Part shown: in pieces, positions 18,551 through 53,751 of the stretch | Numbering within the stretch: the first letter of the stretch is position 1 | Layout: the number at the start of each line of letters is the position of its first letter | NCBI GenBank assembly: GCA_047967505.1 | Contig: CM106538.1 | Length of the DNA stretch: 64,000 nucleotides | Direction: 5' to 3' (one strand) | DNA from: Dipteris shenzhenensis | Taxonomy: Eukaryota | Made by a program: the position numbers and the translations under genes | Notes under the pieces: generated by a model | Databases searched by the model: none | What the model was told of the DNA's origin: nothing | The model's input: the letters and a program-made list of their open reading frames with translations, nothing else

Positions 18551-19940
18551 CATGCATGGTCCACATCAAGATACCCCTGACCAAAATATCATTGGTATGT
18601 CTAGGAGCTCTGGAAATATCAAAGACCTGCACTCCTCTCCATAATATCTGTAACTCCTATATCAAAGGTGCCATGTACACGTCCATGTTTTTTGCCTTGT
18701 ACTTTCCTGGCACAAGTAGTGCAAGCATGAGCTGTCCCTTTTTTATTGTTAGCCATGGTGGGAGATTGTAATTCACCACGACTATGAGCCATGTTGACTA
18801 AGATGTCGAGCGTAACCCAAAAGGATTCATGCCATCCATGGCTAGCCCAAGATGTAAGTTGCATGGCTCCCTCGCAAAGTCCGGCCAGTGATTATCTATG
18901 TGCTTCCAAGCTGCACAATCTGTGGGAATCCTCAATGTGTCATCAGTGGACCGATGAGATGCATGCCATGTCATCAACTCCGCTATGGATTTGCATCGAA
19001 ACATGTGTTGTATTCTTGCAATGATGGGAAAGTGTCTCAAGACCTTTACCGGTATCCGCTCACCCTGCAAGTCATCTCTATATCATTGTTCCCCACACTT
19101 TGGACAACTAGCCAAATCTCCATGCTCATGACAAAAGAGAATACAATCATTACGGCAAGCATGGACGGTATCATACTGGAGCAACCTATGACAAAGACAC
19201 TATCCAAATGATGATTCTCAAAACAAACAATATCCAAATAATGAGTCAAATTAATGCAAGAGCTAACCTCATTAAGGCCGAGACACTTATATCTGACCAC
19301 CCATACTTTACTTGTAGATTCAAGATTAAGAGACAAGCACGTAGTTTAGACATCCTAGCACCCTCGTACAATTGTGTTGATTGCAACTCTCACATTTTGA
19401 CCTCAAACTCTGACATCACATGTACATGGGATGTAGTGCCCCTAAAAATGGAATCCATCATGTCAACCATACCCTCGTCATCATCCGGGAGACTATAGTC
19501 TTGCTGAAAGTGAGAAGGTATATGCGTACACTCGTCACCCTCCTCATCCTGTTTTAAGATTTCATGTAAATATAAGATCTTCTATTTCCTGGTATACAAT
19601 AAGACTGCGAACTTAAATAGCTTTGACTTACCGATAGTCCATCAACACGTGCAACACCAACGGTGGATACTGGTTCCGGCTCCTCCCCATACATCCGCAA
19701 GTGGCGCATGATAATATGACGTTGATGTCGTACTTCTCGCTTGCAATGAGTGCAATGACAGTATAACCTCTTCATAAGCCACTTTGTGCTCTCGGGCATT
19801 GGCGCATCATTGGACAAGCTTCCACTCGTCCCTTCCATCTACACTTATAAAATCACAACATAAGCATGAAGAATAGATATTAACAGTTATAAAATAGCAT
19901 GTATGAGCTTCTTTTCATGCTACAACAAAAAGTGACTATA

Positions 19941-20050
19941 AGCGTCGCTATATAGTGACCTTTTTGCTCTGTTTCATCACTATATAGCGACGTTTTTTAA
20001 TTAAAAACGTCGCTATATAGCAATGAATAAGCATCGCTATATAGCGACGC
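19941..20050. promoter_or_regulatory. Internal cluster of the CACTA subterminal motif between the two divergent genes
   Basis: GTCGCTATATAG-type motifs just upstream of the transposase start (19838); equivalent cluster at 51190-51376 in copy 2. Confidence 0.6.
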
Positions 20051-20699
20051 TGTGGGTTAAAACTCGAAACTCTCGTCGCGTGGTGTTTTCTTTATACTAT
20101 TCTCTAATCTCTCAAGATAGCAAGCCAATATCTCCTCCCACCTATTTTCGACGACCTCCCACCTATTTCAAGCAACCTCCCACTCTATTTTCCACTCCTC
20201 AGCCTTCTCCTAGCTCTTGTACTCCCTCTCTATCCTTTTTCCTCTTTGGTTTCTTGAAAGGAAGTTCTTCAAGAGGTGAGTTTGTTTCAACAATGTAGGT
20301 TGTTTGTTTGTTAGCTTTAGTTTTGTGAGTGCTTCTCCTTGTATTGCTAAACCTGTAAACTAGTTTTCATGCTTGTTTTCAAAGGATTAAAACAAAAAAT
20401 GAAATTTCAAGAAAGAAAGAAGACTCACCTCTTTTTTCTGTATTTCTCTTCCTTCTCTTTCTCCTTGTCTCCTCAATCTCCTCCTTTCAAGAAGTTGCTT
20501 TTGTAATCTCCTCCTTCCTCTAACATCTTATTTGAAAAAATGGGTTGTTTTCTCTCTTTTGTAGGGCTAGTCCACATCCACAACACCGAGTGGGACATAC
20601 TATTTCACGTAAGTGCTTCCTCTTTTTTCCATTTATTATTTTTGTTATTTGCATTGGCCTAAAGCTAGCACCTTAAGCGCTAGCTGTAGTGATGGGTGT

Positions 20700-23160
20700 A
20701 GGAACCCTCTCTTCCCCTCAAACTCTTTCCTTCTTCCCCCTTCTCTTATTCTCTTTTTTCCCCCTTCTCTTATTCTCTCTTTCCCCCTTCTCTATTTTCC
20801 CCTTCTCTCTTTTCTTTCCCTCTTATTCTCTATTTCCGCATAAGCTCATGCATAAGCATAAGCTCATGCATATGCTCATGCTTATGCTCATGCTTATGCT
20901 TCTCTCTTTCCCCCTTCTCTATTTCCCCCTTCTCTCATTCTATATTTTCGCATAAGCTCATGCATAAGCATAAGCATGAGCTTATGCCTATGCTTATGCT
21001 TAAGCATAAGCATAAGCAGAAGCATAAGCTCATGCTTATGCTTATGCATGATCAAAAGCTTATGCTCATGCTTATGCTTGTCTCTTTCTCCCTTCTCTAT
21101 TTCCTCTAACTCTTATTTTCTAGCTCATGCATAAGCATAAGCATGAGCATAAGCTCATGCTTATGCTCATGCATGAGCATGAGCATGAGCTTATGCTCAT
21201 GCTTATGCTTCTCTCTTTCCTCCTTCTCTCATTCTCTATTTCTGCATAAGCTCATGCTTATGCTTCTCTCTTTCCCCCTTCTCTCATTCTCTATTTCCGC
21301 ATAAGCTCATGCATAAGCATAAGCTCATGCTTATGCTCATGCATGAGCATGAGCTTATGCTCATGCTTATGCTTCTCTCTTTCCCCCTTCTCTATTTCCC
21401 CCTTCTCTCATTCTCTATTTTTGCATAAGCTCATGCATAAGCATAAGCGTGAGTTTATGCCTATGCTTATGCTTAAGCATAAGCTATGCTTATGCTTAAG
21501 CATAAGCATAAGCATAAGCATGAGCTTATGCTTATACATGAGCATGAGCTTATGCTCATGCTTATGCTTGTCTCTTTCCCCCTTCTCTATTTCCTCTTAC
21601 TCTTATTCTCTATTTTCGCATAAGCATGAGCATGAGCTTATGCTTATGCTTATGCTTATGCTTAAGCATAAGCATAAGCATAACCTCATGCTTCTATTTC
21701 CTCTAACTCTTATTCTCTATTTTCGCATAAGCATGAGCATGAGCTTATGCTTATGCTTATGCTTATGCTTAAGCATAAGCTCATGCTTATGCTTCTCTCT
21801 TTCCCCCTTCTCTATTTCCTCTAACTCTTATTTTCTAGCTCATGCATAAGCCTAAGCATGAGCTTATGCTTATGCTTAAGCATAAGCATAAGCATAAGCA
21901 TAATCTCATGCTTATGCTCATGCATGAGCATGAGCATGAGCTTATGCTTCTCTCTTTCCTCCTTCTCTCATTCTCTATTTCGACGTAAGCTCATGCATAA
22001 GCATAAGCATGAGCTTATGCTTATGCTTATTCTTCATGCATGAGCATGAGCTTATGCTCATGCTTATGCTTCTCTCTTTCCCCCTTCTCTATTTGCTATA
22101 ACTCCTATTTTCTAGCTCATGCATAAGCATAAGCTCATGCTTATGCTCATGCATGAGCATGAGCATGAGCTTATGCTCATGCTTATGCTTCTCTCTTTCC
22201 CCCTTCTCTCATTCTCTATTTCTGCATAAGCTCATGCATAAGCATAAGCATGAGCTTATGCTTATTCTTATGCTTAAGCATAAGCATAAGCATAAGCTCA
22301 TGCTTATGCTCATGCTTATGCTTCTCTCTTTCCCCCTTCTCTCATTCTCTATTTCTGCATAAGCTCATGCATAAGCTTATGCTTCTCTATTTCCCCCTTC
22401 TCTCATTCTCTCTTTCCCCCTTCTCTCATTCTCTATTTCCCCCTTCTCTATTTCCCTCTTCTCTCATTCTCTATTTTCGCATAAGCTCATGCATAAGCAT
22501 AAGCATGAGCTATGCTCATGCTTATGCTTCTCTCTTTCCCCCTTCTCTATTTCCTCTAACTCTTATTTTCTATTTCTGCATAAGCTAGGCATGAGCTTAT
22601 GCTTATGCTTATGCTTAAGCATAAGCATAATCATAAGCTCATGCTTATGCTTATGCATGAGCATGAGCTTATGCTCATGCTTATGCTTATGCATGAGCAT
22701 GAGCTTATGCTCATGCTTATGCTTCTCTCTTTCCCCCTTCTCTATTTACTCTAACTCTTATTTTCTATTTTGGCATAAGCATAAGCATGAGCTTATGCTT
22801 ATGAATGAGCATGAGCTTATGCTTCTCTCTTTCCCCCTTCTTTCATTCTCTATTTCCTCTAACTCATATTCTCTATTTCCGCATAAGCTCATGCATAAGA
22901 AAATGAGACATATGCTCATTCTTATGCTTATGCACGAGCATAAGCAGAGTAGACATATGCTCATGCATAAGCATGAGCATATGTCTCTTTTTCCCCCCTT
23001 CTCTTATTCTCTCTTTCGCCCTTCTCTCTTCTTCCTCTTCTCTCCCTCTTCTTCCTTTTCCTCCTCTTCCTTTCCATCTTCTCTCCTCTTCTTTCCCTCT
23101 TTCCTTTCCCTCTTCTTCCTCCTCTTCTTTCCCTCTTTGCCTATGCCTATGCTTATGTTT
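20700..23160. repeat. Compound satellite: GCATAA/GCTTAT/GCATGA/GCTCAT hexamer runs alternating with CT-rich blocks, inside a putative intron
   Basis: Directly visible; bounded by GTAAGT (20609) and TTAG|ACATG (23200). Confidence 0.9.
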
Positions 23161-23202
23161 GTTTTTTTGTTTTTTGTTTTCATGTTTGTGTCTATGTTAG
23201 AC

Positions 23203-24872
23203 ATGGGATCACGTCGCTCATCCGATGAGTACGGACAGCCTCGTAGGAGAAGAGCTCATGATCTTTATGCTCTAGAGGACTTTGATTTCTCTTAGGTGAC
23301 TACCCCGAGGACTACCCCTGGTCCGCTGACTCCTCTTGGACCTAGCACTACGACTACCCCTGGTTTGACTCCTCTTCCACGTAGCACTGCGACTACCCCT
23401 CGAGGAACTCCTTTGCTAGCCGCGCATGGCTTTGTCAGGAGTCCCGACGAGTTTGTAGCGCAGATGAGCGATGAGGAGGCAGCGAGATTCTTCTCTCTAC
23501 TATCTCAGAGGACCTCAGCAATTCCCTCCCCTACACCGACGGGTGGATGTACTGCCCAGCCGTGCCCTCGTGCCCCTTCGACCGAGGGGTCATCACCTGC
23601 GCATGCCTCTTGTAAGGGAAGGAAGAGTAGGAAGGGCGGCTCATGTTGTGCTGACTCGGGAGATGTAGACGAGTCAGCACACTCACGTTCCTACAGGTCT
23701 CCACTTGGTCCAGAGACACAGTATCAGTCAGGTCCCTTTCCCTCTCCTACTCCCACTGCTACTCCTCGCTCCGGAAGTGCTCGCGCAGCTTCCACTCCTT
23801 CTGACTCTGCTACCTCAGTCCTCCTTACTCATCAAGGGATCTCTCCTATCAAATCACAACTGCCGGAGAGATAATAGAAGATAGAAATGGCAAAGAAGTG
23901 ATGGCCACCATGAGGAGGTTGATGAGCCATCACTTCAAGAGCGGCATAAATACCGATTGGCTATATAAAGATGGCCAAAAGAAGCAGGCGGTCATCGATG
24001 AGTTAAAACAAAAATACCCTAACCTACCAAATTGGGAGTTTAATGATGATTATATGCAAGAGCGCATGGGTTTGGTCTTGAAGCATCGTAGATCAACCTT
24101 GCGTACTTCCATCACAAAGGGGTTCGCTAAACCCAGCTGGGTAGAAAAAGCTAATTGGAAGTTCTTCAAGAAGCAGAATAGGGACCAGCTCGAATTGTTC
24201 GAGGGTCAGAGGAGGGCTGTGAAGAGACGGCTGGACGTCATAGGTACTTTGCACTTTGGTGTAGGTGGATGGTTGGCGTTCGAGGCAACCGTGGTAAGTC
24301 TACTTCTTCTCATTTAATGTATTGTTCTATTTGTTTTACTACATATTATATGCACTTTAGCTAACTCTAACTCTCGTAAATTGGATCCACAGCAAGCTGC
24401 AATGGGTCGTCTTCCTATAGATGCAGAGACACGATGCGCATTTCGGATAGGAACAAAGCCATGGTTTATTGAGCAAGAGGCAATGGGAGTGACAGTCAAT
24501 TGGGCTGAGGTGGCTACTTGCATGGTATAAGTCTACTCCTACTTGTAATCTCACTTTTTAAATTGTTTTATTCTTTAAGTTCCAATCTAATTTTCGATTT
24601 ATATGGTTCACTCTTAGGGCCAAAGCTCAAGCGTCCCTTCATTAGAGGCGAGCGATCAACAGGGTCAGGGATTAGACGCACATGACGAGGATGTGGAAGA
24701 AGAACCAGCTGACAAGGACCAAGGAACAGGCCAACAAGACGAGGACGATTCGGATTCCGATGAGTAGTAGTAGTAGTAGTGGTAGTAGCATTTTCTTTGC
24801 CCTGTATGTCATTTTGTATATCCGCTCGTTTGAGCAATTTTGTATCGCCCTTTTGAAAGATTAATTTTGTTA
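23203..24872 (+). pseudogene. CACTA second gene (TnpA-like by position), multi-exon with nonsense codons
   Basis: ATG 23203, Pro/Ser/Thr-rich segment, then helical region WEFNDDYMQERMG...KPSWVEKANWKFF; GT-AG introns; lies inside the CACTA termini. Confidence 0.6.
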
Positions 24873-24999
24873 CAAACAATGTTGTATATGTCCAACATGT
24901 ATATGCTTTTGTTGCTCGATCATTTCATTCGAGCGATTTTGTATCACCCTTTTCGCAAGGGAAATTTTGTTATAAAAAAACTTTGTTTTGTAATTACCA

Positions 25000-25073
25000 A
25001 AAAAAAAAAGGATTAGTGGGGCTAAACAGGGCCATAGCAAGCCTTGTTTAGCCCCACTAATCCTTTTTTTTTT
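25000..25073. other. Near-perfect hairpin (about 33-bp stem, 8-nt loop) in the CACTA right subterminus
   Basis: A10GGATTAGTGGGGCTAAACAGGGC-CATAGCAA-GCCTTGTTTAGCCCCACTAATCCT10; homolog at 53441-53510. Confidence 0.9.
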
Positions 25074-25085
25074 AAATTCTGTTAA

Positions 25086-25232
25086 TCGTCGCTATATAGC
25101 GACATTTACCAATGTCGCTATATAGCGACAATTAACAGTATCGCTATATAGCGATGTTTTCCATCGTCGCTATATAGCGACGCTTTATAGTGACGGTTCT
25201 TTTTCAACGCTTTTAGCAAATTTTATAGCGAC
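25086..25232. repeat. CACTA subterminal repeat array, right
   Basis: Tandem GTCGCTATATAGCGAC palindromes before the TIR. Confidence 0.9.
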
Positions 25233-25309
25233 GTTTGCGCCCGTGAAAAAAAAAAATAATGTAAAAAGCGTCGGTATTTTCGACGGAAAAGGGCCTATGC
25301 CTTGTAGTG

Positions 25310-27152
25310 ATTGAATATTTGCTAGTAGAAAAAAATATTCCAATCAGTCAATGTAAAGTTGATCATAGTATTGTAAAGCAAATGGCATCAGCTTTACCGT
25401 TAGCTAAATAGAAGGCTTGGGCACACAAATGGGTGAAGGTAGAAGAGGATGGATCTGAAGTTACTCCTTGTGTCATGCAAAATACATTCCGAAAAATAAG
25501 CATGCATATGCACAAAAAATCATCAATGAGCACACTCTTATAAAAGCAAGAACTTTGAACAGGTGATTTTTTCCATACATGAGCTAATTTCAAAGTCTAG
25601 AAAGAGTGTAGAGTGCAAGGGAGTTTCATTGAATGACTTCTTGTTCGATGACACCGCTTGGGAGAGGCCTCAACTTTACTGTGTCTATGAAATATCACTT
25701 GATGATATCTATCAACTCCTTGACAGAATATTACATACCACCATTGGTAGAGTGGGACTATGTAACATCATCATATTTACTGATAAAGAAGATAAGGAAA
25801 AAATGTCTGCTACCCTAGAGAAACAATATGGCAATGAGCTTAAGCTTAAGATTTGCAATGGTATATAGTCAAGAAAGAGGGACAAGGGAGAATGTGGTCT
25901 CAAAATACAGAGTCTTGAAACCTTTTTCTTGTGCATGAAGATCCCTTACAATGATCACTCTTTACAAAAGAACAAAAGAGGGAATGTAAAGAGGTTGCAA
26001 CTAATGCTCGAAGAGCATGGAGCTCCAAGTCTCCTCCACCGTAATGCCAATCACTATGAAAGGCCAACAAAAAGTGTTGATCTTTTAATTAGTATGATGG
26101 AATTTTGGCTACCTCCTGAATGGGAAGTCACATTGTGTCAAATGGGGCATTTGTTTGAAGCTCTTATTAGAAAAGGACACGCTATAAATATTATTGAGAG
26201 CCCTACTTGCTTGGAAAACCTTTGTATAAAATGATGCTCATGTATGTGTGGGTGTGTGGATTTGTATGTGTGAGCGCATATTTCTATACTATGGTCTACA
26301 CCCATTGTTGGGCACTGATGACGTTAATGGGGATGTCATAGTAGCTAGTCCCTACTATGCATGATGGAGTTTATGGTTTTCAATCTTATGAGTGACTATC
26401 GTGAGTTGAAACTACACTATATTGTGTTTTTAGAGGATGAGTTTGGGAATATTCCTGGATTCATCTAGGTATATGCTTGGAAAACCTTGATACCATGGAT
26501 GCTCTCACAATGAAGTATGATAAAATAGGTCTGATCTCACATGAAGAGAATGATGACATAGAGATGGCCATGTATGATGAGAGCAAGAAAGAGGATGAAA
26601 ATGCTGAAAGCTATGGATATGATAGTGAGGACACCAACGATAGTGAGGAAGCTAACAGAGATGGATATGGCACTAACCCTGCCTGAGAAGGCTACATAAA
26701 AAGACCACAAAGATATCTAAAGGTATAAAAACTTGTCCTTAATTTTCTTCATTTATTTAAAAATCCTTTTTTTAATTATAATTACCTATATCGTGGCAAA
26801 CAGATAAGATCATACTGATAGAGAAGCGGTTTGCTTTACTTATTTTTGGGTGTTATGCTAGAAAGCAATGCTCAAGAGCTGGCTAATTTTAGACATATAC
26901 TGCCTGGGCACTAGCTTGTGGTGTAAAGGATCCCCTCTCCTTGGAAGCTTATAGAAAGCATAAGCTCATTAGGAATCGAGAGCCTTCTTTGGTGGCCCTT
27001 CCTGACAAATTGGTTGAAGAGCAAACTGCGAGCACAACAACTCTTGCACAAGATGATAAGAGTTCAGTTGCTCCTTAGCTCAAGGAAAAAAGGTCTCCAA
27101 TCAAAGTCAAAAGAAAGATTCCAAGCAAATTTGGCAAACCATTGGAAGAATA
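25310..27152 (+). pseudogene. Decayed unknown gene with a weak N6/N4 DNA methyltransferase-like motif and an acidic region
   Basis: Co-oriented ORF pieces 25563-25868, 25929-26234 (PTKSVDLLISMMEFWLPPEWEV...EALIRKGHAINIIE) and 26477-26686. Confidence 0.4.
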
Positions 27153-27399
27153 GCATGTATGGCATTGTATATTTTACAAGATAGAAGTAAGGTTGAATTG
27201 TGAGAACACTGTCATTTTAGAATGCCTTAGTTATGTTTATGTGTATTTGTGACAAAGACAATGTACATTTTGAAATAGAAATATATGTAGTACATTTCAA
27301 ATATTTCAATGGTTGCATACAATGACTTCTTATGAATGAAAGATCCAAGTCTTGGTCATTGCAAAAAAAAAAATTATTACATTTGATGACACCAATTGA

Positions 27400-30090
27400 T
27401 GATCAAGGTTCTATCTACCCATTTGTGGTTTACAAATTCTTTGAGTGTCTCCATTGAGCCTGTCTTTGTGCTACATTTGAGTTCTCCAAAATCTGCCTCC
27501 TTCTTTCCTTTTGAGCCAACCTGAAAGCCAACTTAACCTGTGATGTGTTAAATTTCTTCTTGGCTTGAAGTCTTTGTAGTATTCCTCATCGATAGAACCA
27601 CTGGAACACTTCTTTTAAACTATTGGCTTTCTGTTTTCCTCCAAAATGTTGTGTATGTCTAAAGAATGCATTTCGTGCCATGTAGTGTGATTTCTCCATT
27701 CCCTATGTGGACCAAATTGTAGGGTATCCCTATTTTTTTACAAAGAAAGGAAGGTGATTGTAGATTATATGTTGTTTTGATACATAGGCAAGTGGGCATT
27801 AGAATATATAAAACTAAGATTGTTTGCTTTAAAAAAAACATGCACAAAAATAGGATATTGTTCTTACCATGTTATGAGTGATGTTACATGTTGTCCAAGC
27901 CTCTTTCATTGCCTTTCCAAAACTCTTTACTGCTTCTTCAAATGCTTGTTGATCATTTTTGCTAAAGGTGGCTTCGTCACAAAAAACAAAAGGTTTATCT
28001 AAGCATTTCCACACTTCTGCCTTGACATCTCTTGCCAATCCATCTGCCTGATGATCTTTGATAGCATTGTGGACTTTTCCCCACAAGTTATACTTTATCC
28101 TTGATGTGAATGTTGTTTTACTGCCATTTTTTTTTTCTCTGATGAGACAAAAATCTTCTAGCCTTTACTCCACCAATAGATGGCTTGATAGGAACATCTT
28201 TTCCATTTGTAGATTTTTAAAGATCTTTTGTAATATGTACATCTCCTCCATGGAGACCAATTTCTGATAGCACTAATAGCATTGCTTCTAACGATTGTAG
28301 TGCCTCTTTTCTTCTGCTCTTAGGGGGGCGAAGTTTCCATGCAAATCCAATATATAGGAAAACAAGTTTCTCAATGATCCTACATAATGCATGCAATGTA
28401 CAAATGTGAACATTGCATAATGAGATCTCAAGAACTGTTTTGAAATTTTTATCTACTTTATCTCTGTTGGGTGCTCTTTTCCACCATTTAGAATCTAGGA
28501 CATGCGCTGGTTCGTTTGCAGTATAAGCAAGGAGATTTTGAGTTACCCCCTTTGCTTATATTGAACATACACTTCAGTGTCTTCAGGTCACCTGCCATAT
28601 GCCATTCAATTTGAAAATCACCCTTCCTTGGAACATGAAGATGGCGTTTGACTCTTGATAATTGATGGTATATCTATTTGATGAAATACCCAATAAAGTA
28701 CTGCATGGTCCTCATCCTCAGTCTTCACCTGTAACCTTCACCTGTAACTTAAAATCACAGGTTTGCAAGATATATGATATAAAATTTATTACATTTCGCG
28801 CAAGAAGGCGATAGTTTACATACCTCAAATGCGCCCAACCACCATATGTGCTTTTCCAATTGGACATTGAAGTACTTTGAGCTAGACTTTGTGATCAATT
28901 GATCAAGTGCTCGATTCATCAAAGTGATAGAAACTCTCTCTATCTTTTTTTCCTTGACGATTTCACACTCATCAAGCTTCACAACAAACTTCAAAACTCC
29001 TTTACATTCTTCAAATGTGATACTATAGAACTCAACCATAAGTCTCTGCAATTGTTCAAGATCTACAAAAACATTATTCCAAGCATTATATGTAGTGCTT
29101 CCCTTTTCACTTTCATATACACTTTCGATATAAAAGTACTGTCCAATAAACTTATCAATTTCTTGGTTGAGATGACCTCGTTCCTTCCACACTTGTGCTG
29201 GTGTTGGTAACAACACACGTTTTATACGTTGATCTTTTATTGTTGATGACACAACTCTAAATATTGAAGCATATCCCTTTCTGCTCACTCCGCTCAAATC
29301 AAGAGCCTCTTGAATTTTCGTGACATCAGCTTTACTTTCCGATACAAAGTCTTCCAGCACTTCACGTTTTACCTTCTTAAACATCTTTTCCTCCATCATG
29401 TTCTTTGCAACAATAGTGGAGACTAAACCCTTCATTTGTTTGACACGAATTAAATTAAGATCAATGTTTTCTTTCTCAGGTCCTAAAATTTTTTTGCAAC
29501 AAGTAAACTTTGCAATAATTGCAAGATAGACACATACATACAAATACAATGGCTAAACAAGATGTACTCTTACCTTGCTTTTTATACTGTACGCTTACAT
29601 CCTCCAGTGCCAGCTTTCAACTCCGCAATGTTTTGAATTCTCTTGCTTCCTTTTCTCTCTCCAAGAATGGTTCTCTTCATTCTTGCTCTCCTTAGCTCAT
29701 TCTTTGTCTTTGAATGCTCTTCTATTTCCCTTTGTAGCTGCTCTTTCAAGTCTGAATCTATCGACATTTCTTGGTCCTTCTCCATTCTTTTGCGGACATA
29801 CAATGTCTTGTACATTTTCACAGTTGAATATTGAGTCAAAATGTATCCATACATTCCATTGTTCCCGTCACCCACAAACCTCAAGAGCGTTGTCAGATTT
29901 AAAAATGGAGGGCTCGAATTTCTCAATGGACATTCTGGGTAAATCTGTCCGTCACACCATAAGTCGATATGTTGGGAGCCTGCTCTTCTCATGTTTTCCT
30001 TTTGCGCAGCATGCACAAGCGGAACCTTTCCTCTTTTCTATAGCAGTGCATAAAATGTCCCTTATGTATCCATGAGAGAATGCCCCTTAT
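27400..30090 (-). pseudogene. RAG1/Transib/Chapaev-like DDE transposase, spliced and frameshifted
   Basis: Motifs in order: KFVVKLD (D at 28971-28973); WHMAGDLKTLKC (D at 28587-28589); KSPCLYC; VHICTLHALCRI; NITHNM|HIIYNH; WST*GMEKSH (E at 27694-27696). Confidence 0.75.
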
Positions 30091-30239
30091 GTATTCACAT
30101 ATAATCAAATAATAATACAAATGGAATAAATATCATAAGTAAATATCCTAATGTATTGTAATATTTAGCATAAGTAAAAAAAACACCATCATTAGTCAAC
30201 ACAAACAAGGTAAAAATATTCAAGGACTCATGTTTCTTA

Positions 30240-33200
30240 GGTCATCCTCTTGAGGCTATGATGCTCTAAGAGTACATTGAGTCTCTACTTCTTGTGTAGA
30301 TCGTGTACACTGAGTTTCTACTTCTGGTGCAATCTGTAACAAGCCTAGTAGGGTTGAGCTCAAGATAGACTCAATCTCTTCCTCCTTCACAAGATGTGAT
30401 GTTGTAGATACACATTTAGTCTCTACTTCTTGTGAAGGAAGAATGCATTGAGCCTCTACTTCAGGTGGAGACTATAATGCTTTTGCTATAGACTCATTCT
30501 CTTCTTCCTTTGCAAGTTACAACTCTACTTGAGGTTGTGATGCACAAGGAGACTAAATTGTCTCTTGTTTTTCTTTGGCTCCCTCGACTTCTTCATTGAC
30601 ATCATGTTGTACCCCAATGGTAGTAGTTAGGTCAGTCTTAGCCCTAAAATCTTGTAGCTTGAGCTTTGTATATGATTCTATTGAGACATGTTCAAAAATG
30701 TCATTGAGGAACAACTTGAAGTTGTAGGCAACTCTCCACCCAGTGCTAAATCTATCTTTCTACTCCACTATGATACATGTCTGGAAATTTGGTTGGTCTT
30801 GATGTTGCCTGACTTTTCTAATAATAGATACTAACCTGTTTGCAGACATGTCCATCATGACATAGGAAAAAGTGAATTTGTGTAGTAAATAGTAAGATGC
30901 ATGTTCATAATAATATGATAAAGAACATTTACTTGAACACCGAGTCGTGAAAGCCTCTAACTGAATTGAGAAACCAACAATGGTTGTCATCAAGATCCCA
31001 TACTATCAGGCTCCAATGTAAGCTACATGACCAATAAAGAAAAAATTTATTGATACAATATTAAGCATTAATTGACACAATATTACAAATAAAAGAGTAA
31101 AAGCAAGGTTGAGATGATACTTACTTCTCATAATATGGCATAAAGATGACTAGCATGCCATCCAAGTCTAAAGATTGTAACCTTATACAAACATCATCTA
31201 TCGTCTTCTTGGTATCACTAAGTACAGCTGAAAGGAGAAAATTGAGCATATACACATGATTTTGTATTGATTTATGAAAGTGAGATATAACCATATTGCA
31301 GCAATAAATAAAGAAATGCTAGTAGCAGATTGAATCAAAATATTGAAGTATCAAGCCAAGAGAAGTTCATGTCAAACCTAAGGATGGAAATCATGACTTT
31401 ATCATTAGCCTCTTTCAAAGGGTCGGAGAGGATTGTAACTTCCTCACTACCAAATGTCAAAACCTAAGGTTGCTGGATAATGATAACCCTGACATCAAAA
31501 GAGCTACCCATTTTGTCCAATGCAGTGATTACATTAGGACAACTTATGGGTGTAGCAGCCAATGTTTTCTCTAGATGCTCCATAATGTTATCAATAAATT
31601 ACTTAATGGTAGATGACATAAATGTGTGTAGATGCAAGTCTGTATATGTTGACAATGAGGTTTCACCGTTGCTCAAATTAAAAATTTTAGCAAGTAGCAA
31701 TAAGTATTTATATCCAACTTTGCACCCAAAACTATGGCCATCATGTTGCTTCAATGTTGGGCATGTTACATACTCTATTTGATCTTCAAAGTCACCTTCA
31801 AATTGCATAAGTGCATCTATAGCACCTACCAACTTCTGAGCTGATCCACACATCATAAGAGATAACATAAACGAATGTGCGCATTGTATATGATGCATCT
31901 CATGGAAGTAATTGTGACACAGGTAGGTTATACTTACTCTGACACACTACCATGGACAGATGCTATTGAATTGACAAAGAAACATTGCTTGGCTAAGATG
32001 TCCATAGTCACCAAGCTTCAATACAAACTGCATTACCAATTAAGAATAATTATTATTTGACATAATTCTCCACGATGTAAGAGATAAGCTAAGTAAGGAT
32101 TGATACTCACTCCTCATAATATGCAGTAAAGATAACTCGCGCCTCAGTCAAATCAACAGGTTGCAACCACTTGCAAACATCATCTATGGTCTTCTACTTG
32201 CTACTAAGTACATTAGAAACAAGAGGATTGACCATATATGCACATCTATGTATATATAGGGGAAGCTGTTCTAAAACCATACTGGAATAAAAAGAAAAGA
32301 ATATTAGTCCATTTGATCCAATGGAAATACAAAGCATAAAGTTAAGAAAAAGTTTGTGTCAAAAAACCTGAGGATGGCTATTATGACTTTGTCCACCTCT
32401 TTCTTGGAGTTTAAGAAAATGTCCTCTTCATCAAATAGAAAAGTAAGAGGTTGTTTTCGAACTTGAAACCTAGCTTGAAATGACTTCCCCATCTGCTGCA
32501 AGGTATGATTATTTTCTAGACCGATCCGATGGATAGCCAGAGTAGCTTTGTTTTCTTAAGACGAGCTTCCTATATTCTCTACTCTAGCTATGTCCACCTC
32601 ATCCTCCTTTCCCTCCCCCTATAAAAACATGAAATAATTATGAGATTATCACCCAAAACTTTTAAGAAACACTTGAAAAAATAAGTAAGAGCAACCCCAT
32701 CGTTGCTAAGCAATTTGCTAAAAAACAGTTTCTTCACAGCAGATAGGTCTTTAATATAATGAGAAAGGCTTGATAGTTTACCAAGCCCAGGAATTCTACT
32801 TCCAGCCGCCCTCAGGAGGAATGTGTCATCTTCAATGAACAACTGCCATATGCAAAACACACTTTGATTTAAAACAAACCATCAAATTGCATATCTAAAC
32901 CCCAAATGCAAGAAAGGTAGGTTCCTTACCTCAATATTCTCACCTTTCTCTAGTATATCATCGTTAAATAAGGAGATACCCATCTCCTCCTTCCCCTCGG
33001 AGTTGTCACTGATATCCAAGCTTGTTGTGAGGTTCATCCTGCTTGGGTTTCCTGGAAGATTGTCTCATTCACCTCTTCATACATTTTGGCTTGCTCAAAA
33101 TAGATGGAAAATGCTTCCGAAGCATCGAATTTGTCCTCCAACTCTAACAAAGGATCGTCCTCAATCCTTACTTCCTTGTCAACCCTACTAGATTGTGCAA

Positions 33201-35000
33201 TAAGGCAATTGCATAATCTTCTCTCAAATTAAATAGGCATTGTACGTAATACAACAAGACATCCTCTTTTCCCTCAATATTGAATGAGGGAAGAATGGGC
33301 ATAGTGGGGTCAGAGCTCTCAGCCTCCACGTCATCCACTATGACAGCATCTCTTAGGGTCTCGTTTTTTAAGGCCGCTAGGTCCAATTTTGCAACTGCAA
33401 GCTCTTCCTCTATCGAGTTGATCTTCTCTTCCACTTCTGGTAGATCTGACTTTTCCTATGTTTCTTCTTCCTCATTGGTATCCTTTGGGTCCTCAATTGA
33501 TCCATCAGTATAGTGTACATACATGGCAAATGCAAGTGCCTCTTCAAGTATTTTGCAATTGCCCTTGTGTACAGTGCATATTCCCTCATGACAATCTTCA
33601 AAACTGTCAAACACCTTGTGCATTTGATACATCATCCTGTCGTTTGTAGCAGCAATGTCTTTGACATGTACAAAAGTCTTGCTGTTTGACAACTTTTGAT
33701 CCTTCAACTGTAAGCTTGTGGAAGGATTCATACATCTCTCCAAGAAAATCCTTATGATGTGTCAGAAGAGACTACAAATCCAGCTCCTTATTGAACATAT
33801 CATGGTATTTGTGATAGTACAGTTCTCATTCTGACTTCTATAGGAATTCAAAGAACAGCAGTTGGGGTGACTTCTTTTCCTCCTCCTCCTTTCCCTTACC
33901 AACTGATTGTCCACCTTTGTCTGAACCCTTGTCATTGGGCTTTTTCTCTTCACTGCATCATACAAAATCAAAAAATGAGTCTTGCACATATAGCTAAAAA
34001 GAAATAGAAGCACTCATACATAAATTCTTACCAGAAGATTCCTCCTCCTTTACAGCATAAGCTGAGAGGTCAATGGTCTTCCTGACAGGTCTTGGTGCAT
34101 CACTTGCATCACCTATTTGGTTAGCTCCTCCTCTTTGAAAGTTTTCAGAAAAATGTGATATGACTGTCTTTATAATTAAATAGACTAAAATCATGTTTTC
34201 TAGGCAAAAGTTCTATTGATGCAAAAACATCATGTCCAAAGAAAATTCAGGTGAATCTGCAAGATAGTTGTCTTGATCATTTAAAAGACGAAGAAGATGA
34301 CTTCTAGCTGATGTAGTAGAATTAGATAGATCAAGAATACAATTGGAAAGGTAGATCAAGACTCTGGTGTATTTAAGTACCTGTAGCATTTCTCTCCATG
34401 GATCTTTGCACAAGTATAGGTAGGTGGGGATGATGATGGGAAAAAATCAAGGTCTAATGTATTGTCCATATGAAAATGAGGAAGAAGATGAAGATTCAAA
34501 ACTGTTGAATGGATGGAGAAAAGTGAAGATAAGAGTGCGATATGGGGGAGAAAAACAAAGAACAAGCTCAAATCGTGTTTTTGAGCAAAGATAGTGAAGC
34601 CTACTCTAATGAATCAGTTTGGACTCTACCATCCTCCTAAACCCTACAATGCATATGAAATGTGCTCGAAAAAACAACTCATAGAGTTCCTTTTAGAGAA
34701 AGCTATGGAATGGTCATTTCACCTTACTAATAGGAAAAACCAATGACTTGTGACAGATTGCTCACCTGGGCTTTTGTGTATCTCTGGAGCTAGAGCTAGG
34801 GAGGTGTGAGATGGACCTGGGGAGGTTGTGGCTAGATCTATAATGGGTGGTGGAGCTGGTGAGGGAGGTTGGATTTGGAGTTGCAATGGGACTCTGTGAT
34901 GGAGGTGGTGAGGTAGTGAGGTTGGATCTGGAGTTGGAGCTAGTGAGGTAGTGGGGTTGGAGCTGGAGGTGGTGAGGTTGGAGGCAACTAAAACTAGAGA
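30240..35000 (-). pseudogene. Multi-exon gene with two tandem Ulp1/peptidase C48-like domains
   Basis: DDVCKWLQPVDL...VIFTAYYEE|LY*SLV...FVNS|...QHDGHSFG (about 31680-32450) and DDVCIRLQSLDL...VIFMPYYEK|LHWSLIVWD...FLNS|...*KDRFSTGW (about 30690-31480); matching intron positions; gene ends approximate. Confidence 0.7.
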
Positions 35001-36055
35001 TAGGGATAAAATGAAGGGTAGCTCTACTTAGAGGGGGTTTTGTCTCAAAATCTGTGCAAACAATGATGAGGAAATAAATGCATAGGAACCTAGAAGACCA
35101 TTTTCCGCATGTGTGGCTGACAAGACAGATGTGACATTCATTGGAAACTGTGCCCTTTCCTCTTATCTACAATTTCTCCATCCCTCTAGTAGTTCTGATC
35201 TACAATTTCCTCCATCCCTCTAGCAGTTCTGATCTACATCACTGCCATCATCATCCCCCCCACCCCATGCAATCATCATCCCCCCCCCTACTCCCATCAT
35301 CCCCCCAACCCCAACCCCCCCCCCTACCCTTACTACACCTATGCAAGAGCCACAAACAAGTCACCTAGGCTAGTCATGGAAAGAAAAAATCTAGGTGTAC
35401 ACAATCACAGATCAAGAAAACACTAGTAGCAACCAAATATTGCAGATTCCCAAGTGGTAGAATGAGAATTAGATAAAAACTGCAATTTGGAGCAGTTTTC
35501 CTGAAGAAACATGAATATCGCCTTTTCTATAACGAAAGGTATCAACCTTATTTAGTATGTATCAGCTTAAGAAGAACTTGATGGGTACCAACTTGATGGT
35601 TGTGAGCTTGATGTATCTTGAGCTATAGTGGGTCAGTGTGGATAACAGTTTGATGGGTATCAGCTTGATGGGTTGAGATAGAGTTGTAGTGGGTTTGGGG
35701 AAAGGACCTAGAGCAATATTGGGTCCAGTTGTAGTGGGTCTGGGGGAAGGACCTAGAGCCTATAGGGAAGAAGATGAAACTATAGATGGAGATGACAACG
35801 GGAATGAAGTCTGGCAGCTTGGTCTAAAAATTGGTGCATGTAATCACTAGATACTCTAAATATAGTACCTTGAAGACCAGTTTTGGCATGTGTGGCTGAC
35901 AAGTATGACTTGAATAGATATCTCTGCCATCTTTCGTAGAAAACTTTTAGCATGTTGGGTGTTTTTACACCATATCGTTTTTTCAAGCAAACTCTTAGGT
36001 TGCTGATTTCCTTGTGATGTTTGGGTTTTTTTTTAGGAGAAGAGCACAATATACT

Positions 36056-37085
36056 ATGGCAAGAACCAAAGCAACAGCTAAAAGGAAAGGAAAAGGACCA
36101 GACATTGCAGGGGCTGCCACAGCTCCATCCAGGTCTAAATCTTCAAAGAAGGGGAAGCCTGTGCACATGCTAGCAAGGAACAAGAAGAAAAGAGTGAGCC
36201 AAAGCAGATCTATCTTGATGGAGATTAGGAAGGCTTAGAAAGCCATAGGATATGAAGTACCCATGGCACCATTCGAGAGGCTGGTCAGAGCAGTATGCAT
36301 GAACTGGCATGTGGACTTTAGATGGCAAAGGACTGCACTACTTGCTCTCCAAGAAGCTACTGAAGAGTGGCTCATAGAGTTTTTCATGGACACCATGATG
36401 GTAGTAGCACATGCACACAAGGTCACCATCATGAATAAAGACATCCAAACACTTGTCAGGGTCAAATATAGATATGACAAGATCCTTAATGTAGAGGATT
36501 GGGATGATCTGAAAATGAGGGATATCTTGTTGATACCTCCAGCCAAGAAACCTAAAGATGATGGATTCAAGGTTGTCGAGGTGTTTCACCAACTTCATAC
36601 CAGAGGCAAGGCTGCCTATGAAGAGTCCCTCCGGGAAAGAGTCAAAGAAACAATGTCTGTCTTGCAATCCCAGACATTAGTGAGGATGGTGCAAATTCAC
36701 CAGAATCTCCTACAACTTGGACCAAGGATCAGAGTAGCCATCCAGACTGTGAATGATGACATGACCTAGGACTTGACAGAAGACTACATCATGGCTTTAG
36801 CACAAAAAGAAAAACATGTGACTTGCATAATCATCCAAAACAGCAGGAGGAGTCAATGTAGGAGGAGTGGATGCAAGAGGAGGCAGTACCGATGGAGGAT
36901 GTGTAGCAGTAGGATCCACAGCAGGATGTAGAGTAGCTAGATCCACAGCAAGATGTACAGCAGTAGGATCCATAGCAATAGTAACCTAAGCAGCATGTGG
37001 AAGATTCTCACAGGAGTCTCCACTGCAAAAAAGTCAATATAGAGATTCTGAGCAATAATAGAAAAATAGATGATGCTTGTAATTA
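36056..37085 (+). pseudogene. Divergent histone H3-like protein with a long C-terminal extension and nonsense codons
   Basis: MARTKATAK...LMEIRKA*K...PFERLVR...DFRWQRTALLALQEATEEWLIEFFMDT...HAHKVTIMNKDIQ matches the H3 fold without gaps; TAG at 36236-36238 falls where H3 has Gln; Q/E-rich tail follows. Confidence 0.9.
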
Positions 37086-37281
37086 GTTTGTATTAATACA
37101 TCAAATTTCAAATATTTTTTTTTGGTTGCAAGTAATACTTGAGTCAATAGCTTTGTATTATTTGAATTGTTCTATTTACAATGTCCTTGCGTTAAATTTT
37201 TTTTTTGCTCCTTTGAAGTATCTACAAAAATAAATTTTTAGCAATATGTAAATGTATTATGCAAATGTAAAGAGAATCAAA

Positions 37282-38565
37282 TTAAGAGAAACAAAGGGTG
37301 GTCAAATTAGGAGAAACATGCGGTGGAAACCAACTTACTTTCCTATTGTTCAAAATGAATGAAATTTCTTTATGGATATTGTTCTCATTCTCCATAATAA
37401 TGTCATTGTGTAACTGATAGAGAGTGCAACATTGTCCCAGTGAGATGGATGTTAAAAGGATGTCATTCTCAATAACATTGATTTCAATTATTGGACCCGA
37501 TGACCTCTCGTCTTGGTCCATTTCCACAAGTTTTGTGCCTATCATTCTAATGCATTTATAGTAAAAAGAGAAAATAAAGTTTTGTGAGGCACTTAATGTT
37601 GATGGAGTTATGAGCAATCTCACAATACACATTGTTGGCCACCATTCTATCCCAACCATTATCCAAAAAATTTGGAATTGGAACATCATACCCTTGTACA
37701 AACTTTGACTGGATAATCCTAAAAAAGTTCTACAAAAACTGTAAGTGGCATGAAAACATTGATTTTAACTATCCTGGTAGCAATATCTGGTTTCAAGGAA
37801 TGTTGTACTTCTGAAAATAATTTGGCTCTGTAGGATTCTGTGATGCTGTTCCATCAGGGATTGGCCAATCAACTGTATTCCATGCCAAGAGATCTTGCTT
37901 TTTTAATAAACCGTGTGAGTGAGCATTGTCCATCAATTGATAAAAGTGATCATAAAAGAATATACCCAATTCAGCCAGGGTTGTTGATTTTCTACCTCTA
38001 TACTGTAGCTCCCCAATAGCACCATGTAAAGCATCAAAGAATCCCAGTATGCACTCCAGTGGTTGCCATTCTTCATATGATGAGGATATATATCTGAATG
38101 AAAATAAAGAGAGTGTCCGTCATCAAAAGAAACAAATATTTCATTTCAAGTATTTCATTACACAAATACACTTACAATTGGGTCTATAGTGTGGAAGATA
38201 AGTGGGATGATCTCATAATACAAGTTCTCGGTGCATGTAGACATGTTGTATTCGAATCTCTCTGACGCATCTTGTGCCTTCCTTTTCTACTGTGAAATCT
38301 TTCACTCTGCTCTTCCAAGAAGCCAAAAAAGTGTTAGTTGATTGCTGGTTTCTCCGCTTGTTGGGTTGCATTAGAACCCAATCTCCTTTCGCCACTGCTA
38401 TCCTTTTCTAGCTACCGTCCACATTCACAGTATTGGAAACTTCTACACATGAGATTAATGAGGTAGATCTTCACAGGGCAAAGAGATACTTTGTACATCC
38501 ACATCTTCGCCAGGTATAGCAACAGACCACTTCCTAGTGGCACAACCAAAGTTTTTGGTTGCCAT
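37282..38565 (-). pseudogene. BAH-domain-like gene, spliced and decayed
   Basis: VAKGDWVLM...WKSRVKDF...IQHVYMHRELVL...PN|YISSSYEEWQPLECILG...FFYDHFY follows the BAH pattern; GT-AG intron 38094-38175. Confidence 0.55.
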
Positions 38566-39118
38566 CTAAATCCTAAAATACATACTAAAGTTTTTGGTTG
38601 CCATCTAAAGTTTTTGGTTTTGCGAAGTCAAAGAAACACATACTAAAATAGTAAGACATTAACAAAAATGAACAAAACTGAAAACAAGCGAATAAATGGT
38701 GAAAGGAGCTTATTGTCTTGAAAGTTTAAGAGCATCACAACAACAATGATGCAATGAGGAATGCTTGTTGAAGAGAGAATGAAATGGCTCGTTGTGGGTG
38801 AAAGTAGTAGAATGCGGAGAACAAGAGAAAGTGGACGATTGTTTTGGGTCATCACATGGAATGGAGCTCTGTTTTGATTTTGGGTCCACATCACTTGATA
38901 CGGCAGGCAAACCGTAAAAGAATTTAAAAAAAATCTTCTTATTAATGCCACACGCTTGTAACAACATGAAGTACTATTTTCTTTGTCATATTTTTGCCTT
39001 TTTTTGTGAAATCTCTACATTATGTTGGCCTTCTCCTCATTGGTTGAGAGAGATTTTTTCAAAACCCGAAAAGGTCCCAAAATGAGCTCCCTTTTTTCCT
39101 AATGTTATTCATAGACCC

Positions 39119-41630
39119 GCAACATCAATGGTTCACTTTATTACTTGACTTTCATCGACGAATACATCAGATATTGTTGGGTCTACTTTCAGAAAGAGAA
39201 ATCAAAAGTGTTTTCTAGATTTCAAGAATTCAAAGCCATGGTAGAAAACCAAACAAGCAGAAAGATCAAAGTCATGAGATTGGATAGAGGAGGTGAATAC
39301 ATGTCTTCACCATTCATGAACTTTTGTAGAAGTCATGGCATTCGAAGATAATTCACTTGTGCAGATACTCCTCAGCAGAATGCAAGAGCTGAAAGGAAGA
39401 ATGGTACTTTAGTAGACAGTGCTAGAGCAATGATTAATGAGAAGCATCTTATTGGGCAGAAGCAATAGCCACCAAAGATGTTTTTATCGAAACTATACTT
39501 ATATATTAATATAAAATCTTGGCGAAAGTTTATTGAGCTAGTTTTTTTAGTTTCATGATGTTAACCGAACATGTTATAAAAATTTTATTTTTTTTTTGAA
39601 TTTTGAAGAAAATGTTATAAATCCTGGCGAATCTTTAAGTTTTTTCTCATAAAAGTTTCAAATCTTGGCGAATGTTTCAAACCTTTATTTTTATTAGGGC
39701 ATACAAACTTTGGACACCAATTTTAAAGTTTCACCTCTTAACGAAACTAAGAGGAAAAAATCATCCATGATAGCCACTACAAACTACTTGCTTAATTGGC
39801 TTCCTACCGAACTGATACAAGGTATGACACCTTATGAAGCATTCACTGGACATAAGCCACACATTGGGCATGTCCACATATTTGCTTGCATAGCATATGC
39901 ATACAAGTTGTTTGATCCCATCAACCACAAGGTCATTATCTCCAGAGTTGTAATCTTTGATGAGGAATCAGAATGGAAAACCTCAAATATACAACAGATA
40001 GACTCACCAATTATTCAGTCATCCATAGAAAAGGTTGATGAAGAAGAGCAAGAATTGCCAAAAACACCCTAAGCAAAGCCACAATAGCTCAAACAGTCTA
40101 CTAGGTAAAGCAAACCTCCAAGTAGATTGACATATGCTCAAAAAGGAAAAGCAATTCAAGTTGAAACCACCAACTATGCTCTTATGACTACCATCATGGC
40201 TATAGAAGAGCCAGTGTACTTCAAAGATGAAGTAGACAAGCCAGAATAGAAAACCACTATGAATGAAGAAATGGATGCTTTGTATAAGAATAATACTTGG
40301 GAATTATGTGACCTTCCACTAGGAAAGAAGGCCATAGCAAACAAATGGGTATACAAAGTGAAGTACAATCCAGATGGAAGTATTCAAATATACAAAGCCA
40401 GACTAGTTGCAAAAGGATTTGCATAGCAATATGGTCAAGATTACGATGAGACTTATGCTCCAGTATCAAAGATGGATTCCATACGGTTCTTGATATCACT
40501 AATGACACTCAGCAGATGGAATGTGTACCCGCTTGATGTCAAGAATGCATTTCTCAATGGTTATCTAAATGAGGAAGTCTACATGAAACAACCAACAGGT
40601 TATGTTGAACCAAAAAAGGAGAATAAGGTTTGACATCTTAAGAAAAGTCTCTACGACTTAAAGCAAGCACCCAGAAGTTGGTATAACAGAATCAACAAGT
40701 ATTTTGCTGATTTGGGATACATAAAGTCCAATGCAGATCATACTCTCTACTACAAAGTTCAAGGGGAAGACATTACTATTGTACTTTTGTATGTAGGTGA
40801 TCTGATTGACTGTAAGCAAGGATAGCTTCATTAGAAAACTAAAACAAGACTATTCTATAGAGTTCGACATGAAAGATCGTTGACTTATGCACTATTGTCT
40901 TGGAATTGAGTTTTGGAGAGATTCAGACATCACCTTCATGAGTTAGCTCAACTATGTTCACAATCTCCTGAAGAAGTTTCATGTGGCAGATTGCAAGATT
41001 GCAACCACTCCCATGGAACAAAGTTTGAAACTTACTAAATATTAAGTTCACTAGCACAATTTATGGGGCAATTCCAAAACAGTCTCACTAGAATGCAGCA
41101 AGATAGTTTGGGATAGAATACAAAGGAGGTCATCCAAGGTTGCATGGATACTATGACAGTGACTATGCCAGAGATCATGAGACCAAGAGATCCGCATAGG
41201 GATATGCATTTTTCCTTGTTCAAGGTGCTATATCATGTTTCTCAAACAAATAGCCAACTGTTTCTTTGTCTTTGACTAAAGCAAAATATAGAGCACTCAC
41301 TATAGGTGCATGTGAGGCTATATGGCTCAAAAGACTATTGTCAAAAATAGATTACTTTGATGAGTCAAAGCCAACAACAATATACTGTGATAATCAATTG
41401 GCTCAAGCATTGGCCAAGAATCCAATATATCACTCCAAGACAAAGCACATTGATATCAGAGAGCACTTCATGAGAGAAAGAGTGTTACTTGGTGGCATCA
41501 CACTGTAGCATTGTGATAGCAAAGAGAATGTTGTAGACATCTTTACCAAACCACTCGGTAAGGCGCTTTGCGAGAAACACCGACAAGCTATTGGTTTGAT
41601 GTAGAGGAAGGACATTCCCATTAAAGGGGT
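39119..41630 (+). pseudogene. Degenerate copia family C pol (IN-RT-RH), starting abruptly inside integrase
   Basis: YYLTFIDEY, RLDRGGEYMS, TPQQNARAERK, LDVKNAFLNG, YCDNQ...HSKTKHIDIREH; PPT AAAGGGG near 41623-41629. Confidence 0.9.
39473..39769. mobile_element. Non-autonomous hAT (Ac/Ds-like) MITE, copy 1
   Basis: 8-bp TSD ATAGCCAC (39465-39472, 39770-39777); termini CAAAGATG / CATCCATG resemble Ac CAGGGATG. Confidence 0.85.
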
Positions 41631-53500: not shown

Positions 53501-53751
53501 GTTTTTTTAAGCTTATGTTAATCGTTGCTATATAGCGACATTTACCAGTCTCACCATATAGCGATGTTTACTAGTGTCGCTATATAGTGACATTTATTAG
53601 TGTCACTATATAGCGATGCTTATATAGCGACCGTCCTTTTTCTATGCTTATAGCGATGTAAATACCGACCTTTGTGCCCATCCCCAAAAAAAACTTTTTA
53701 GTGTAAAAATGGTCGGTATTTCTGTCAGAAAAGGGCCTGTGCCTTGTAGTG
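50574..53751. mobile_element. CACTA copy 2, internally deleted derivative; left part missing
   Basis: Mosaic of segments matching about 11072-11121, 18585-18680 and 19405-20720, plus the satellite and 24856-25309; ends GCCTTGTAGTG at 53751; repeat arrays 51190-51376 and 53522-53658. Confidence 0.9.
52050..53300. repeat. CT-rich / GCATAT-GCTTAT compound satellite of CACTA copy 2
   Basis: Directly visible; same position as 20700-23160 relative to the conserved flank. Confidence 0.88.

Follow-up and report, generated by a model that had tools for sequence, protein, structure and literature searches.

A probable dead DNA transposon copy with a RAG1/Transib-fold transposase, a convergent partner gene and a histone H3-like gene in Dipteris shenzhenensis

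We analysed a 64,000-nucleotide stretch of Dipteris shenzhenensis DNA (GenBank assembly GCA_047967505.1, contig CM106538.1), hereafter the window, and in particular the block at positions 25310-39118. This block probably contains a single copy, dead and rearranged, of a DNA transposon of the cut-and-paste type that belongs to the RAG1/Transib structural superfamily and carries a transposase, a second gene termed open reading frame 2 (ORF2) and a histone H3-like gene. As reconstructed from its relatives, the ancestral element would have held these three genes, with ORF2 convergent to a transposase whose RAG1-type catalytic core combined candidate D, D and E residues with CxxC and HxxxxH motifs. 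A 5.9-kb inversion would then have split ORF2 in this copy, the transposase, ORF2 and the H3-like gene would each have gained stops or frameshifts, and today the copy is bordered by a CACTA element on its left and by a truncated copia element on its right. The window copy is dead and without functional importance for the host. The initial annotation had described the block as a large transposon with a chromatin toolkit comprising RAG1-like transposase, histone H3-like, BAH, double Ulp1 and possible methyltransferase-like genes.

The 265-amino-acid (aa) ORF at 28758-29552 on the minus strand retrieved five relatives with 36-43% identity (E 2.4e-47 to 1e-36; 1625 candidates scored), none of which was named or contained a Pfam domain. 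When a profile of nine family members was searched against clusters formed at 50% identity (1.84 billion representatives), 688 clusters, most of them fragments, were found at E<=1e-3; of these, 374 remained at E<=1e-10 and 94 at E<=1e-30. A scan of metagenome contigs yielded 17 related loci from 118 pattern matches, and the viral contigs scanned with the transposase alignment contained no relative. Many of the transposase relatives presented long intact ORFs, and in the related loci the protein was estimated from its ORFs at ~900-1000 aa, with a long N-terminal region that included a coiled coil and for which Pfam gave only weak coiled-coil families.

It was structure that tied this family to RAG1/Transib, while sequence methods linked it to nothing known. 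An AlphaFold2 (AF2) model of the 527-aa ORF from one related locus, L008, was built with an alignment of 32 rows and reached a predicted local distance difference test (pLDDT) score of 86.2 and a predicted template modelling (pTM) score of 0.82. In a Foldseek search with this model, all ranks down to 49 were RAG1, BbRAGL or HzTransib (best E 8.9e-11), and the next family, Hermes, appeared at rank 50 (E 0.018). Similarly, VIA-align matched residues 1-476 of the model with RAG1 552-1029 (Z 20.1, 391 residues, root-mean-square deviation 4.2), followed by BbRAGL (Z 18.9), HzTransib (18.8), the P element transposase (12.5) and Hermes (8.1). As modelled from L008, a homolog of the window copy, the transposase family shows the RAG1-core fold of the Transib/RAG1 superfamily. 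The RAG1-like transposase of the initial annotation was therefore borne out, by its homologs and by a model fold matching RAG1 and Transib. The fold also suggests that transposition would proceed by RAG1-like hairpin chemistry.

Further analysis of the family alignment identified candidate catalytic residues. The D of KLDE was conserved in 20 of 21 filled rows, the D of AGDLK in 21 of 23 and the E of QGME(K/R)SH in 16 of 20; a CxxC pair was also conserved, and the two histidines of HxxxxH were near-invariant (31/32 and 32/32). All these motifs were also present in the window copy. Judging from motif order, the D, D and E may be equivalent to RAG1 D600, D708 and E962, and the remaining motifs to its zinc ligands. 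The nearest relative of the window transposase, L010, could be aligned at 50-67% identity, in pieces distributed across three frames: there were at least three frame changes within a stretch that is a single ORF in L010, and at least four in-frame stops, one in the core and three in the last exon. The window copy grouped with L010 (support 83/92) when a tree was built from the N-terminal core, and L007 formed a separate deep branch. An intron directly after ...ITHYM was located at the same place in L001, L002, L004-L006, L010-L013 and L015-L017; the transposases of L007 and L008 had no such intron and read through as ITPYMHIL...

In order to describe gene linkage we used the 8 of the 17 related loci whose sequence continued for at least 400 bp past the transposase stop. 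In this downstream flank, ORF2 was present in convergent orientation in four loci, an H3-like gene in two, another ORF in one and nothing recognisable in one. ORF2 was tail-to-tail with the transposase in L010, L001, L006 and L004, with a slight overlap in L001 and a distance of up to ~170 bp in the other three, and the H3-like gene of L007 and L008 was located on the same strand as the transposase, 110-140 bp downstream of it. The window carries the transposase, ORF2 and an H3-like gene. Since ORF2 was present in 4/8 and the H3-like gene in 2/8 of these loci, the combination recurs. For these three genes, the linkage supports the earlier proposal of one mobile element encoding its own H3 variant; for the BAH, Ulp1 and methyltransferase genes, the proposal found no support in any search. 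Because the window copy groups with L010 and L007 sits deep apart, histone linkage would thus occur in two distant branches of the transposase tree. The H3-like genes of L007 and L008 were 65% identical at the aa level, with 0.26 nonsynonymous (dN) and 1.26 synonymous (dS) substitutions per site and a dN/dS of 0.21 (162 codons), and their transposases were also 65% identical, with a dN of 0.27 and saturated dS. From the equal identity, the like dN values and the dN/dS of 0.21, both genes diverged together in the L007/L008 lineage, with purifying selection acting on the H3-like gene in this one lineage.

Several observations weigh against a single element of this kind. Regarding the transposase, the profile of nine family members found no RAG1 or Transib match at E<=10 among PDB sequences (matches to other entries at E 0.03-0.07 were discarded as chance), Pfam returned no RAG1 family and no second transposase copy was present in the window. 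Regarding the termini, neither terminal inverted repeats (TIRs), nor a heptamer resembling that of recombination signal sequences (RSS) at a plausible end, nor a target site duplication (TSD) was found in the window, where the copy has been rearranged and other elements adjoin it; likewise, six related contigs, all of them short, showed no inverted repeat, TSD or heptamer at plausible boundaries. Regarding the histone, the window-type and L007/L008-type H3-like genes were only 32-38% identical and may be separate captures, and among relatives the transposase linkage was seen for the L007/L008 type. In addition, the window H3-like gene lies ~6 kb from the transposase, not at 110-140 bp, and ~2.2 kb away from the closest stretch matching ORF2; the 6.1-kb contig of the nearest relative, L010, shows no H3-like gene; and among the eight flanked loci one lacked both genes and one had a different ORF.

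The H3-like gene itself was confirmed by the Pfam histone family and by H3 entries of the PDB. The reading from 36056 on the plus strand (MARTKATAKRKGKGP...) started with MARTKATAKRK, thus including the ARTK N-terminus, and continued into a full histone fold, which aligned to H3 over residues 20-156 (E 3e-20, PDB sequences). Its reading frame of ~260 codons was not intact, with in-frame stops at 36236-36238 and 36767-36769. It was colinear with the family profile over positions 1-65 (E 9e-12), 67-240 (E 1.3e-84) and, weakly, 245-267 (E 0.58), and no frameshift was found over profile positions 1-240. Eleven relatives of the window type were retrieved at 50-64% identity (46 candidates). A cluster member, P0197, presented an ORF of 270 aa that is intact, begins in the same way (MARTKATARRKG...) and includes a ~130-residue extension under strong conservation; an Atlas search with P0197 returned generic histone clusters only (score 0.76). 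The L008 H3-like gene was also intact. In the tails of the window, P0197, L008 and L007 genes (n=4), K4 was kept while position 9, a K in canonical H3, was an R. The L007 and L008 genes had in addition an insertion that lengthened loop 1. When histone matches were ranked, H3/CENP-A chimeras came first and S. pombe Cnp1 occupied rank 2-3 for the L008 gene and rank 8-9 for P0197; both H3-like types scored slightly better against the chimeras and Cnp1 than against most canonical H3, with E-values within two orders of magnitude of those of canonical H3. An origin from CENH3 may be taken from this as a lead only.

Other features of the H3-like genes were recorded. Both damaged copies had a single stop in the alphaN region, at 2372-2374 of L007 (VAL*EIR) and at 36236-36238 of the window (IRKA*KA). 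Intact relatives of the window gene end in LTKD..A.S.R.TY.SDT.IL, which may resemble the start of C48 domains; no search supported this likeness. At the end of the L008 contig (2716-2856), the intact H3-like gene was followed by an ORF starting MVRVKKTPTRTNQ..., reminiscent of the H3-like N-terminus, in which the H3-like profile found no match at E<=0.1. Prediction of a complex between the transposase of L008 and its H3-like protein, run without alignments or controls, gave no support (score 0.00).

The main rival on the role of the H3-like gene is that it was a passenger, namely a transduplicated host H3 or CENH3 without a function in the element, as in the hAT transposons of Dothideomycete fungi. 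Capture and amplification of H3 by hAT elements is documented (PMC6710886), and the window and L007 copies contain in-frame stops. We consider this explanation possible, if rather doubtful, as it accounts poorly for the dN/dS of 0.21 between the L007 and L008 copies with a divergence equal to that of the transposase, for a window-type family that keeps the histone fold and the ~130-aa extension at 50-64% identity with intact ORFs, and for the R at position 9 in 4/4 tails. Functional proposals for the gene are tentative as well. The one we favour is a role in the chromatin of the element itself: the H3-like protein might be deposited on element chromatin or might titrate the readers and writers of the H3 tail, so that silencing based on H3K9 methylation would be blunted, given that an R at position 9 would not be methylatable; to this we assign a rather low likelihood. 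A more far-reaching proposal, which we regard as unlikely, is that RAG1-fold transposons of the green lineage would encode their own H3 variant (K4 kept, K9 changed to R, a conserved C-terminal module in one branch) that would form nucleosomes at or close to the element on which H3K9 methylation is impossible, or would bring in the transposase, with the conserved convergent ORF2 as a functional counterpart of RAG2.

An improbable explanation is that the genes of the block are chance neighbours in a transposon nest and that the H3-like gene came from a different element, for example as cargo of a Mutator-like element (MULE) or of CACTA. The window is indeed densely packed with CACTA and copia fragments, the H3-like gene stands at ~2.2 kb from ORF2 homology and ~6 kb from the transposase, shared termini were not found and the window-type H3-like gene is strongly unlike the L007/L008 type. 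Yet in two independent relatives this rare transposase is immediately followed by an H3-like gene that co-diverges with it. Moreover, a six-frame Pfam scan of 25310-39118 (read through with X at stops, E<=0.01) returned Histone (PF00125) as the sole family, with no other transposase between 30 and 39 kb, and the transposase and H3-like gene of the window are similarly decayed (at least four stops and at least three frame changes versus two stops in ~260 codons).

The partner gene ORF2 encodes 627 aa in L010. It had no Pfam family and no usable Atlas match, and a word-index search returned only itself; its AF2 model, mostly helical, had low confidence (pLDDT 49.5), and no fold match rose above Z 5.1. 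The rows tied there, which included Dachshund, Ski and Mbp1-type DNA-binding domains, were not used. From its conserved position, ORF2 would probably be an accessory factor. In the window, ORF2 profile matches were found on both strands. On the minus strand they covered profile positions 130-421 (33761-33459, E 3.3e-05; 33455-33171, E 4.4e-10; 32881-32591, E 0.0015), with one or more in-frame stops and either an intron or a change of frame, and on the plus strand positions 425-488 (26782-26883 and 26893-27075), where tblastn with residues 550-626 of the L010 ORF2 gave 39% identity (E 5e-09). The halves join within a few residues: one strand reads ...FLKVLG and the other LPISWQTDKIIL..., and L010 reads ...FLGGFTIPQNYDKIIL... 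Because the pieces are complementary, non-overlapping and on opposite strands, they are best explained by a putative inversion of 26782-32644, and re-inverting this segment restores the order transposase-> <-ORF2 of L010, L001, L006 and L004. As an alternative, two partial copies of the element in opposite orientation would also place ORF2 pieces on both strands, and in nests it is common for fragments to end up side by side. We judge this to have a small probability, since the pieces are exactly complementary (130-421 and 425-488) without any overlap and a single transposase copy is present in the window. The five-gene map of the initial annotation (+ / - / - / + / -) was incorrect in its details; its left plus-strand gene and its minus-strand gene at 32.6-33.9 kb turned out to be the ORF2 halves plus unassigned sequence. 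A second ORF2 copy at 25530-26234 on the plus strand was ruled out, as the ORF2 profile had no match there at E<=1.

Repeats were also observed around these genes. A direct repeat of ~340 bp with 68% identity (31067-31403 and 32052-32393) lies within the inverted segment, upstream of the transposase, and may represent small inserted elements or element-internal repeats. Short tandem repeats at 30256-30471 (minus strand) and 34900-35330 encode repetitive peptides such as PEVE(A/T)QC... and proline-rich runs; they lie in the putative regions upstream of the transposase and in the interval that separates ORF2 from the H3-like gene.

Finally, a decayed host gene cluster, in which a domesticated RAG1-like gene and its partners would stand without any transposon, is very improbable: in its favour, TIRs and TSD were not found and many relatives have long intact ORFs, but the family comprises 688 divergent clusters that are mostly fragments, the 8 of the 17 loci sharing one record-name prefix vary widely (36-100% identity to the query), the accessory content varies between ORF2 and H3-like gene, and the window copy is a pseudogene within a nest.

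The reading of the block as a transposon copy of the RAG1/Transib superfamily was then compared with known systems. The family shares with HzTransib and the RAG1 core a fold of ~350-400 residues that comprises the RNase H-like catalytic, zinc-binding and C-terminal domains (Z 18.8-20.1), and candidate D, D, E, CxxC and HxxxxH columns are conserved within the family; it differs in showing no sequence match to RAG1 or Transib in Pfam or PDB and in possessing a long N-terminal coiled-coil region and accessory genes. According to PMC7204232, the Transib family is defined by TIRs that bear a CAC heptamer and by TSDs of 5 bp, neither of which was found for the window element, and convergent orientation is the hallmark of RAG1L-RAG2L pairs. 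The RAGL elements (ProtoRAG and relatives), with RAG1L and RAG2L convergent between TIRs, resemble our family in that transposase and ORF2 are tail-to-tail and very close, ORF2 occupying the RAG2L position. They differ in that ORF2 shows neither Kelch nor PHD domains in Pfam and yields the helical, low-confidence model described above, any homology of ORF2 to RAG2L being hypothetical. RAG1-fold transposases in plant genomes are already in print, because Tao et al. 2022 (PMC9435367) list 39 Transib-like proteins of plants, several angiosperms included; the text mentions neither histones nor accessory genes in the plant elements. Regarding histones, Dothideomycete hAT transposons captured and amplified H3 (Dhillon et al. 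2019, PMC6710886), and are likewise DNA transposons with H3-derived sequence. They belong to another superfamily and kingdom and carry recent captures of canonical H3, most of which repeat-induced point mutation (RIP) has inactivated, whereas the H3-like genes of the window family are strongly diverged, with altered tails, an extension and purifying selection in one lineage. For the Ulp1/C48 cargo known from MULE, CACTA, Ginger and Zisupton elements, the terminal pattern of the intact H3-like relatives is a lead only, and no C48 match was found in the window or in P0197. A full-text literature search found no Transib or RAG-like element described with histone cargo, nor the partner gene.

Transposases of the RAG1/Transib type hold a key place in the origin of V(D)J recombination, and transposon-encoded histone genes are rare. 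To our knowledge, most described Transib elements have no gene besides the transposase, a partner gene (RAG2L) being restricted to RAGL elements. The divergent RAG1-fold family, in which a convergent partner is conserved, offers a new comparison point for the rise of two-gene RAG-like elements. With a selected and recurrent H3-like gene whose product has the K4 context and lacks K9, 'epigenetic self-defence' or chromatin-guided integration become directly testable. If the more far-reaching proposal were true, the H3 variant and an ORF2 counterpart of RAG2 would mirror, from the transposon side, the link between the RAG2 PHD domain and H3K4me3 in V(D)J recombination.

Table 1. Coordinates of the features of the candidate element and of its flanks in the window.
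Feature	Position	Strand	Evidence
RAG1/Transib-fold transposase pseudogene	27442-30052	-	homologs P0001-P0005, E down to 2.4e-47; comparison with L010; fold of the relative L008
Transposase N-terminal domain	29585-30052	-	
Transposase core with KLDECE, AGDLK, CxYC and VHICTLHA motifs	27859-29552	-	
Transposase last exon with STxGMEKSH	27442-27790	-	
ORF2 C-terminal piece	26782-27075	+	profile 425-452 (E 0.0041) and 457-488 (E 6.3e-05); tblastn; tail-to-tail with transposase
ORF2 N-terminal and middle part	32591-33855	-	profile matches; tblastn with L010 ORF2 residues 161-394
Inferred inverted segment, ~5.9 kb (ORF2 C-terminus, transposase, 2.6 kb of transposase upstream region)	26782-32644	.	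ORF2 split
Histone H3-like gene with family-specific C-terminal extension	36056-36840	+	PF00125 E 1.6e-21; PDB H3 matches E 3e-20
Left block with ORFs 25530-26234 and 26441-26686	25310-26781	+	originally upstream of transposase under the inversion model
Decayed ORFs once labelled 'double Ulp1'	37282-38145	-	no Pfam match at E<=10; no PDB match at E<=10
CACTA terminal region (flank, outside element)	24850-25309	+	self-BLAST against 53296-53757 (24850-25315 as query), 77.6%
Ty1/copia fragment, 5'-truncated (integrase from residue 138, reverse transcriptase, RNase H; flank)	39121-41598	+	tblastn with polyprotein ORFs of the intact copia of the window

The chromatin genes other than the H3-like gene could not be confirmed, and the right-hand 2.3 kb of the block (36840-39118) contains no assigned gene. 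For the double Ulp1, no Peptidase_C48 match was obtained in the six frames (E<=0.01), in single ORFs (E<=10) or among PDB sequences, nor in P0197; the BAH domain and the possible methyltransferase-like gene had no match in the six-frame or single-ORF Pfam scans or in the PDB sequence searches. The minus-strand ORFs once labelled as double Ulp1 also had no match in the related loci. HW and DAL-like motifs in the minus-strand ORFs at 37.8-38.1 kb were seen by eye only and not counted as evidence, and a DNA_primase_S match at 38646-39014 (minus strand, E 0.0034), below the Pfam cut-off, was taken as chance. The left block had no Pfam match, and no PDB sequence match better than E 0.25, and neither tblastx nor tblastn matched it to any of the 17 loci.

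Judged by its content, the window appears to be a nest of plant-type transposons. On the left, the CACTA end ...CCTTGTAGTG is located at 25309, and a second copy of the same composite has an identical end at 53751. The CCTTGTAGTG motif had two exact matches, both of them CACTA ends, and one match with one mismatch at 27677-27687, with 0.81 matches expected by chance. Position 25310 is the first base beyond this neighbouring CACTA and therefore no terminus of the candidate element, so that the block start of the initial annotation only marks where the neighbour ends. The opposite end of the flanking CACTA was not found in the window; subterminal motif clusters were present at 7.35-7.47 kb, with no CACTA terminus there. 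On the right, copia homology begins at 39121, at residue 138 of the integrase-reverse transcriptase (INT-RT) ORF, and extends to RNase H at 41598. The sharp edge at ~39118 against a copia integrase in mid-domain is thus real; it may be an insertion or a deletion boundary, because the 5' half of this copia is absent from the whole window.

Further elements were observed in the nest. A near-intact Ty1/copia at 12974-18550 is inserted inside the CACTA; its 354-bp long terminal repeats (LTRs; 12974-13327 and 18197-18550) are 97.7% identical and its ORFs of 349, 854 and 184 aa are open, which resembles a young insertion. A composite of copia 3' part, LTR and CACTA 3' part was seen at two places, joined identically in both (16501-25309 and 48558-53751). 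The copia part of the two copies is ~90% identical and the CACTA part only 72-78%, so that the divergence is unequal. The copia 3' end and LTR are found for a third time at the window start (1-717, 88.5%). Finally, the CACTA copies contain long internal tandem arrays at 20700-23300 and 52050-53300, which give rise to long low-complexity ORFs on the plus strand.

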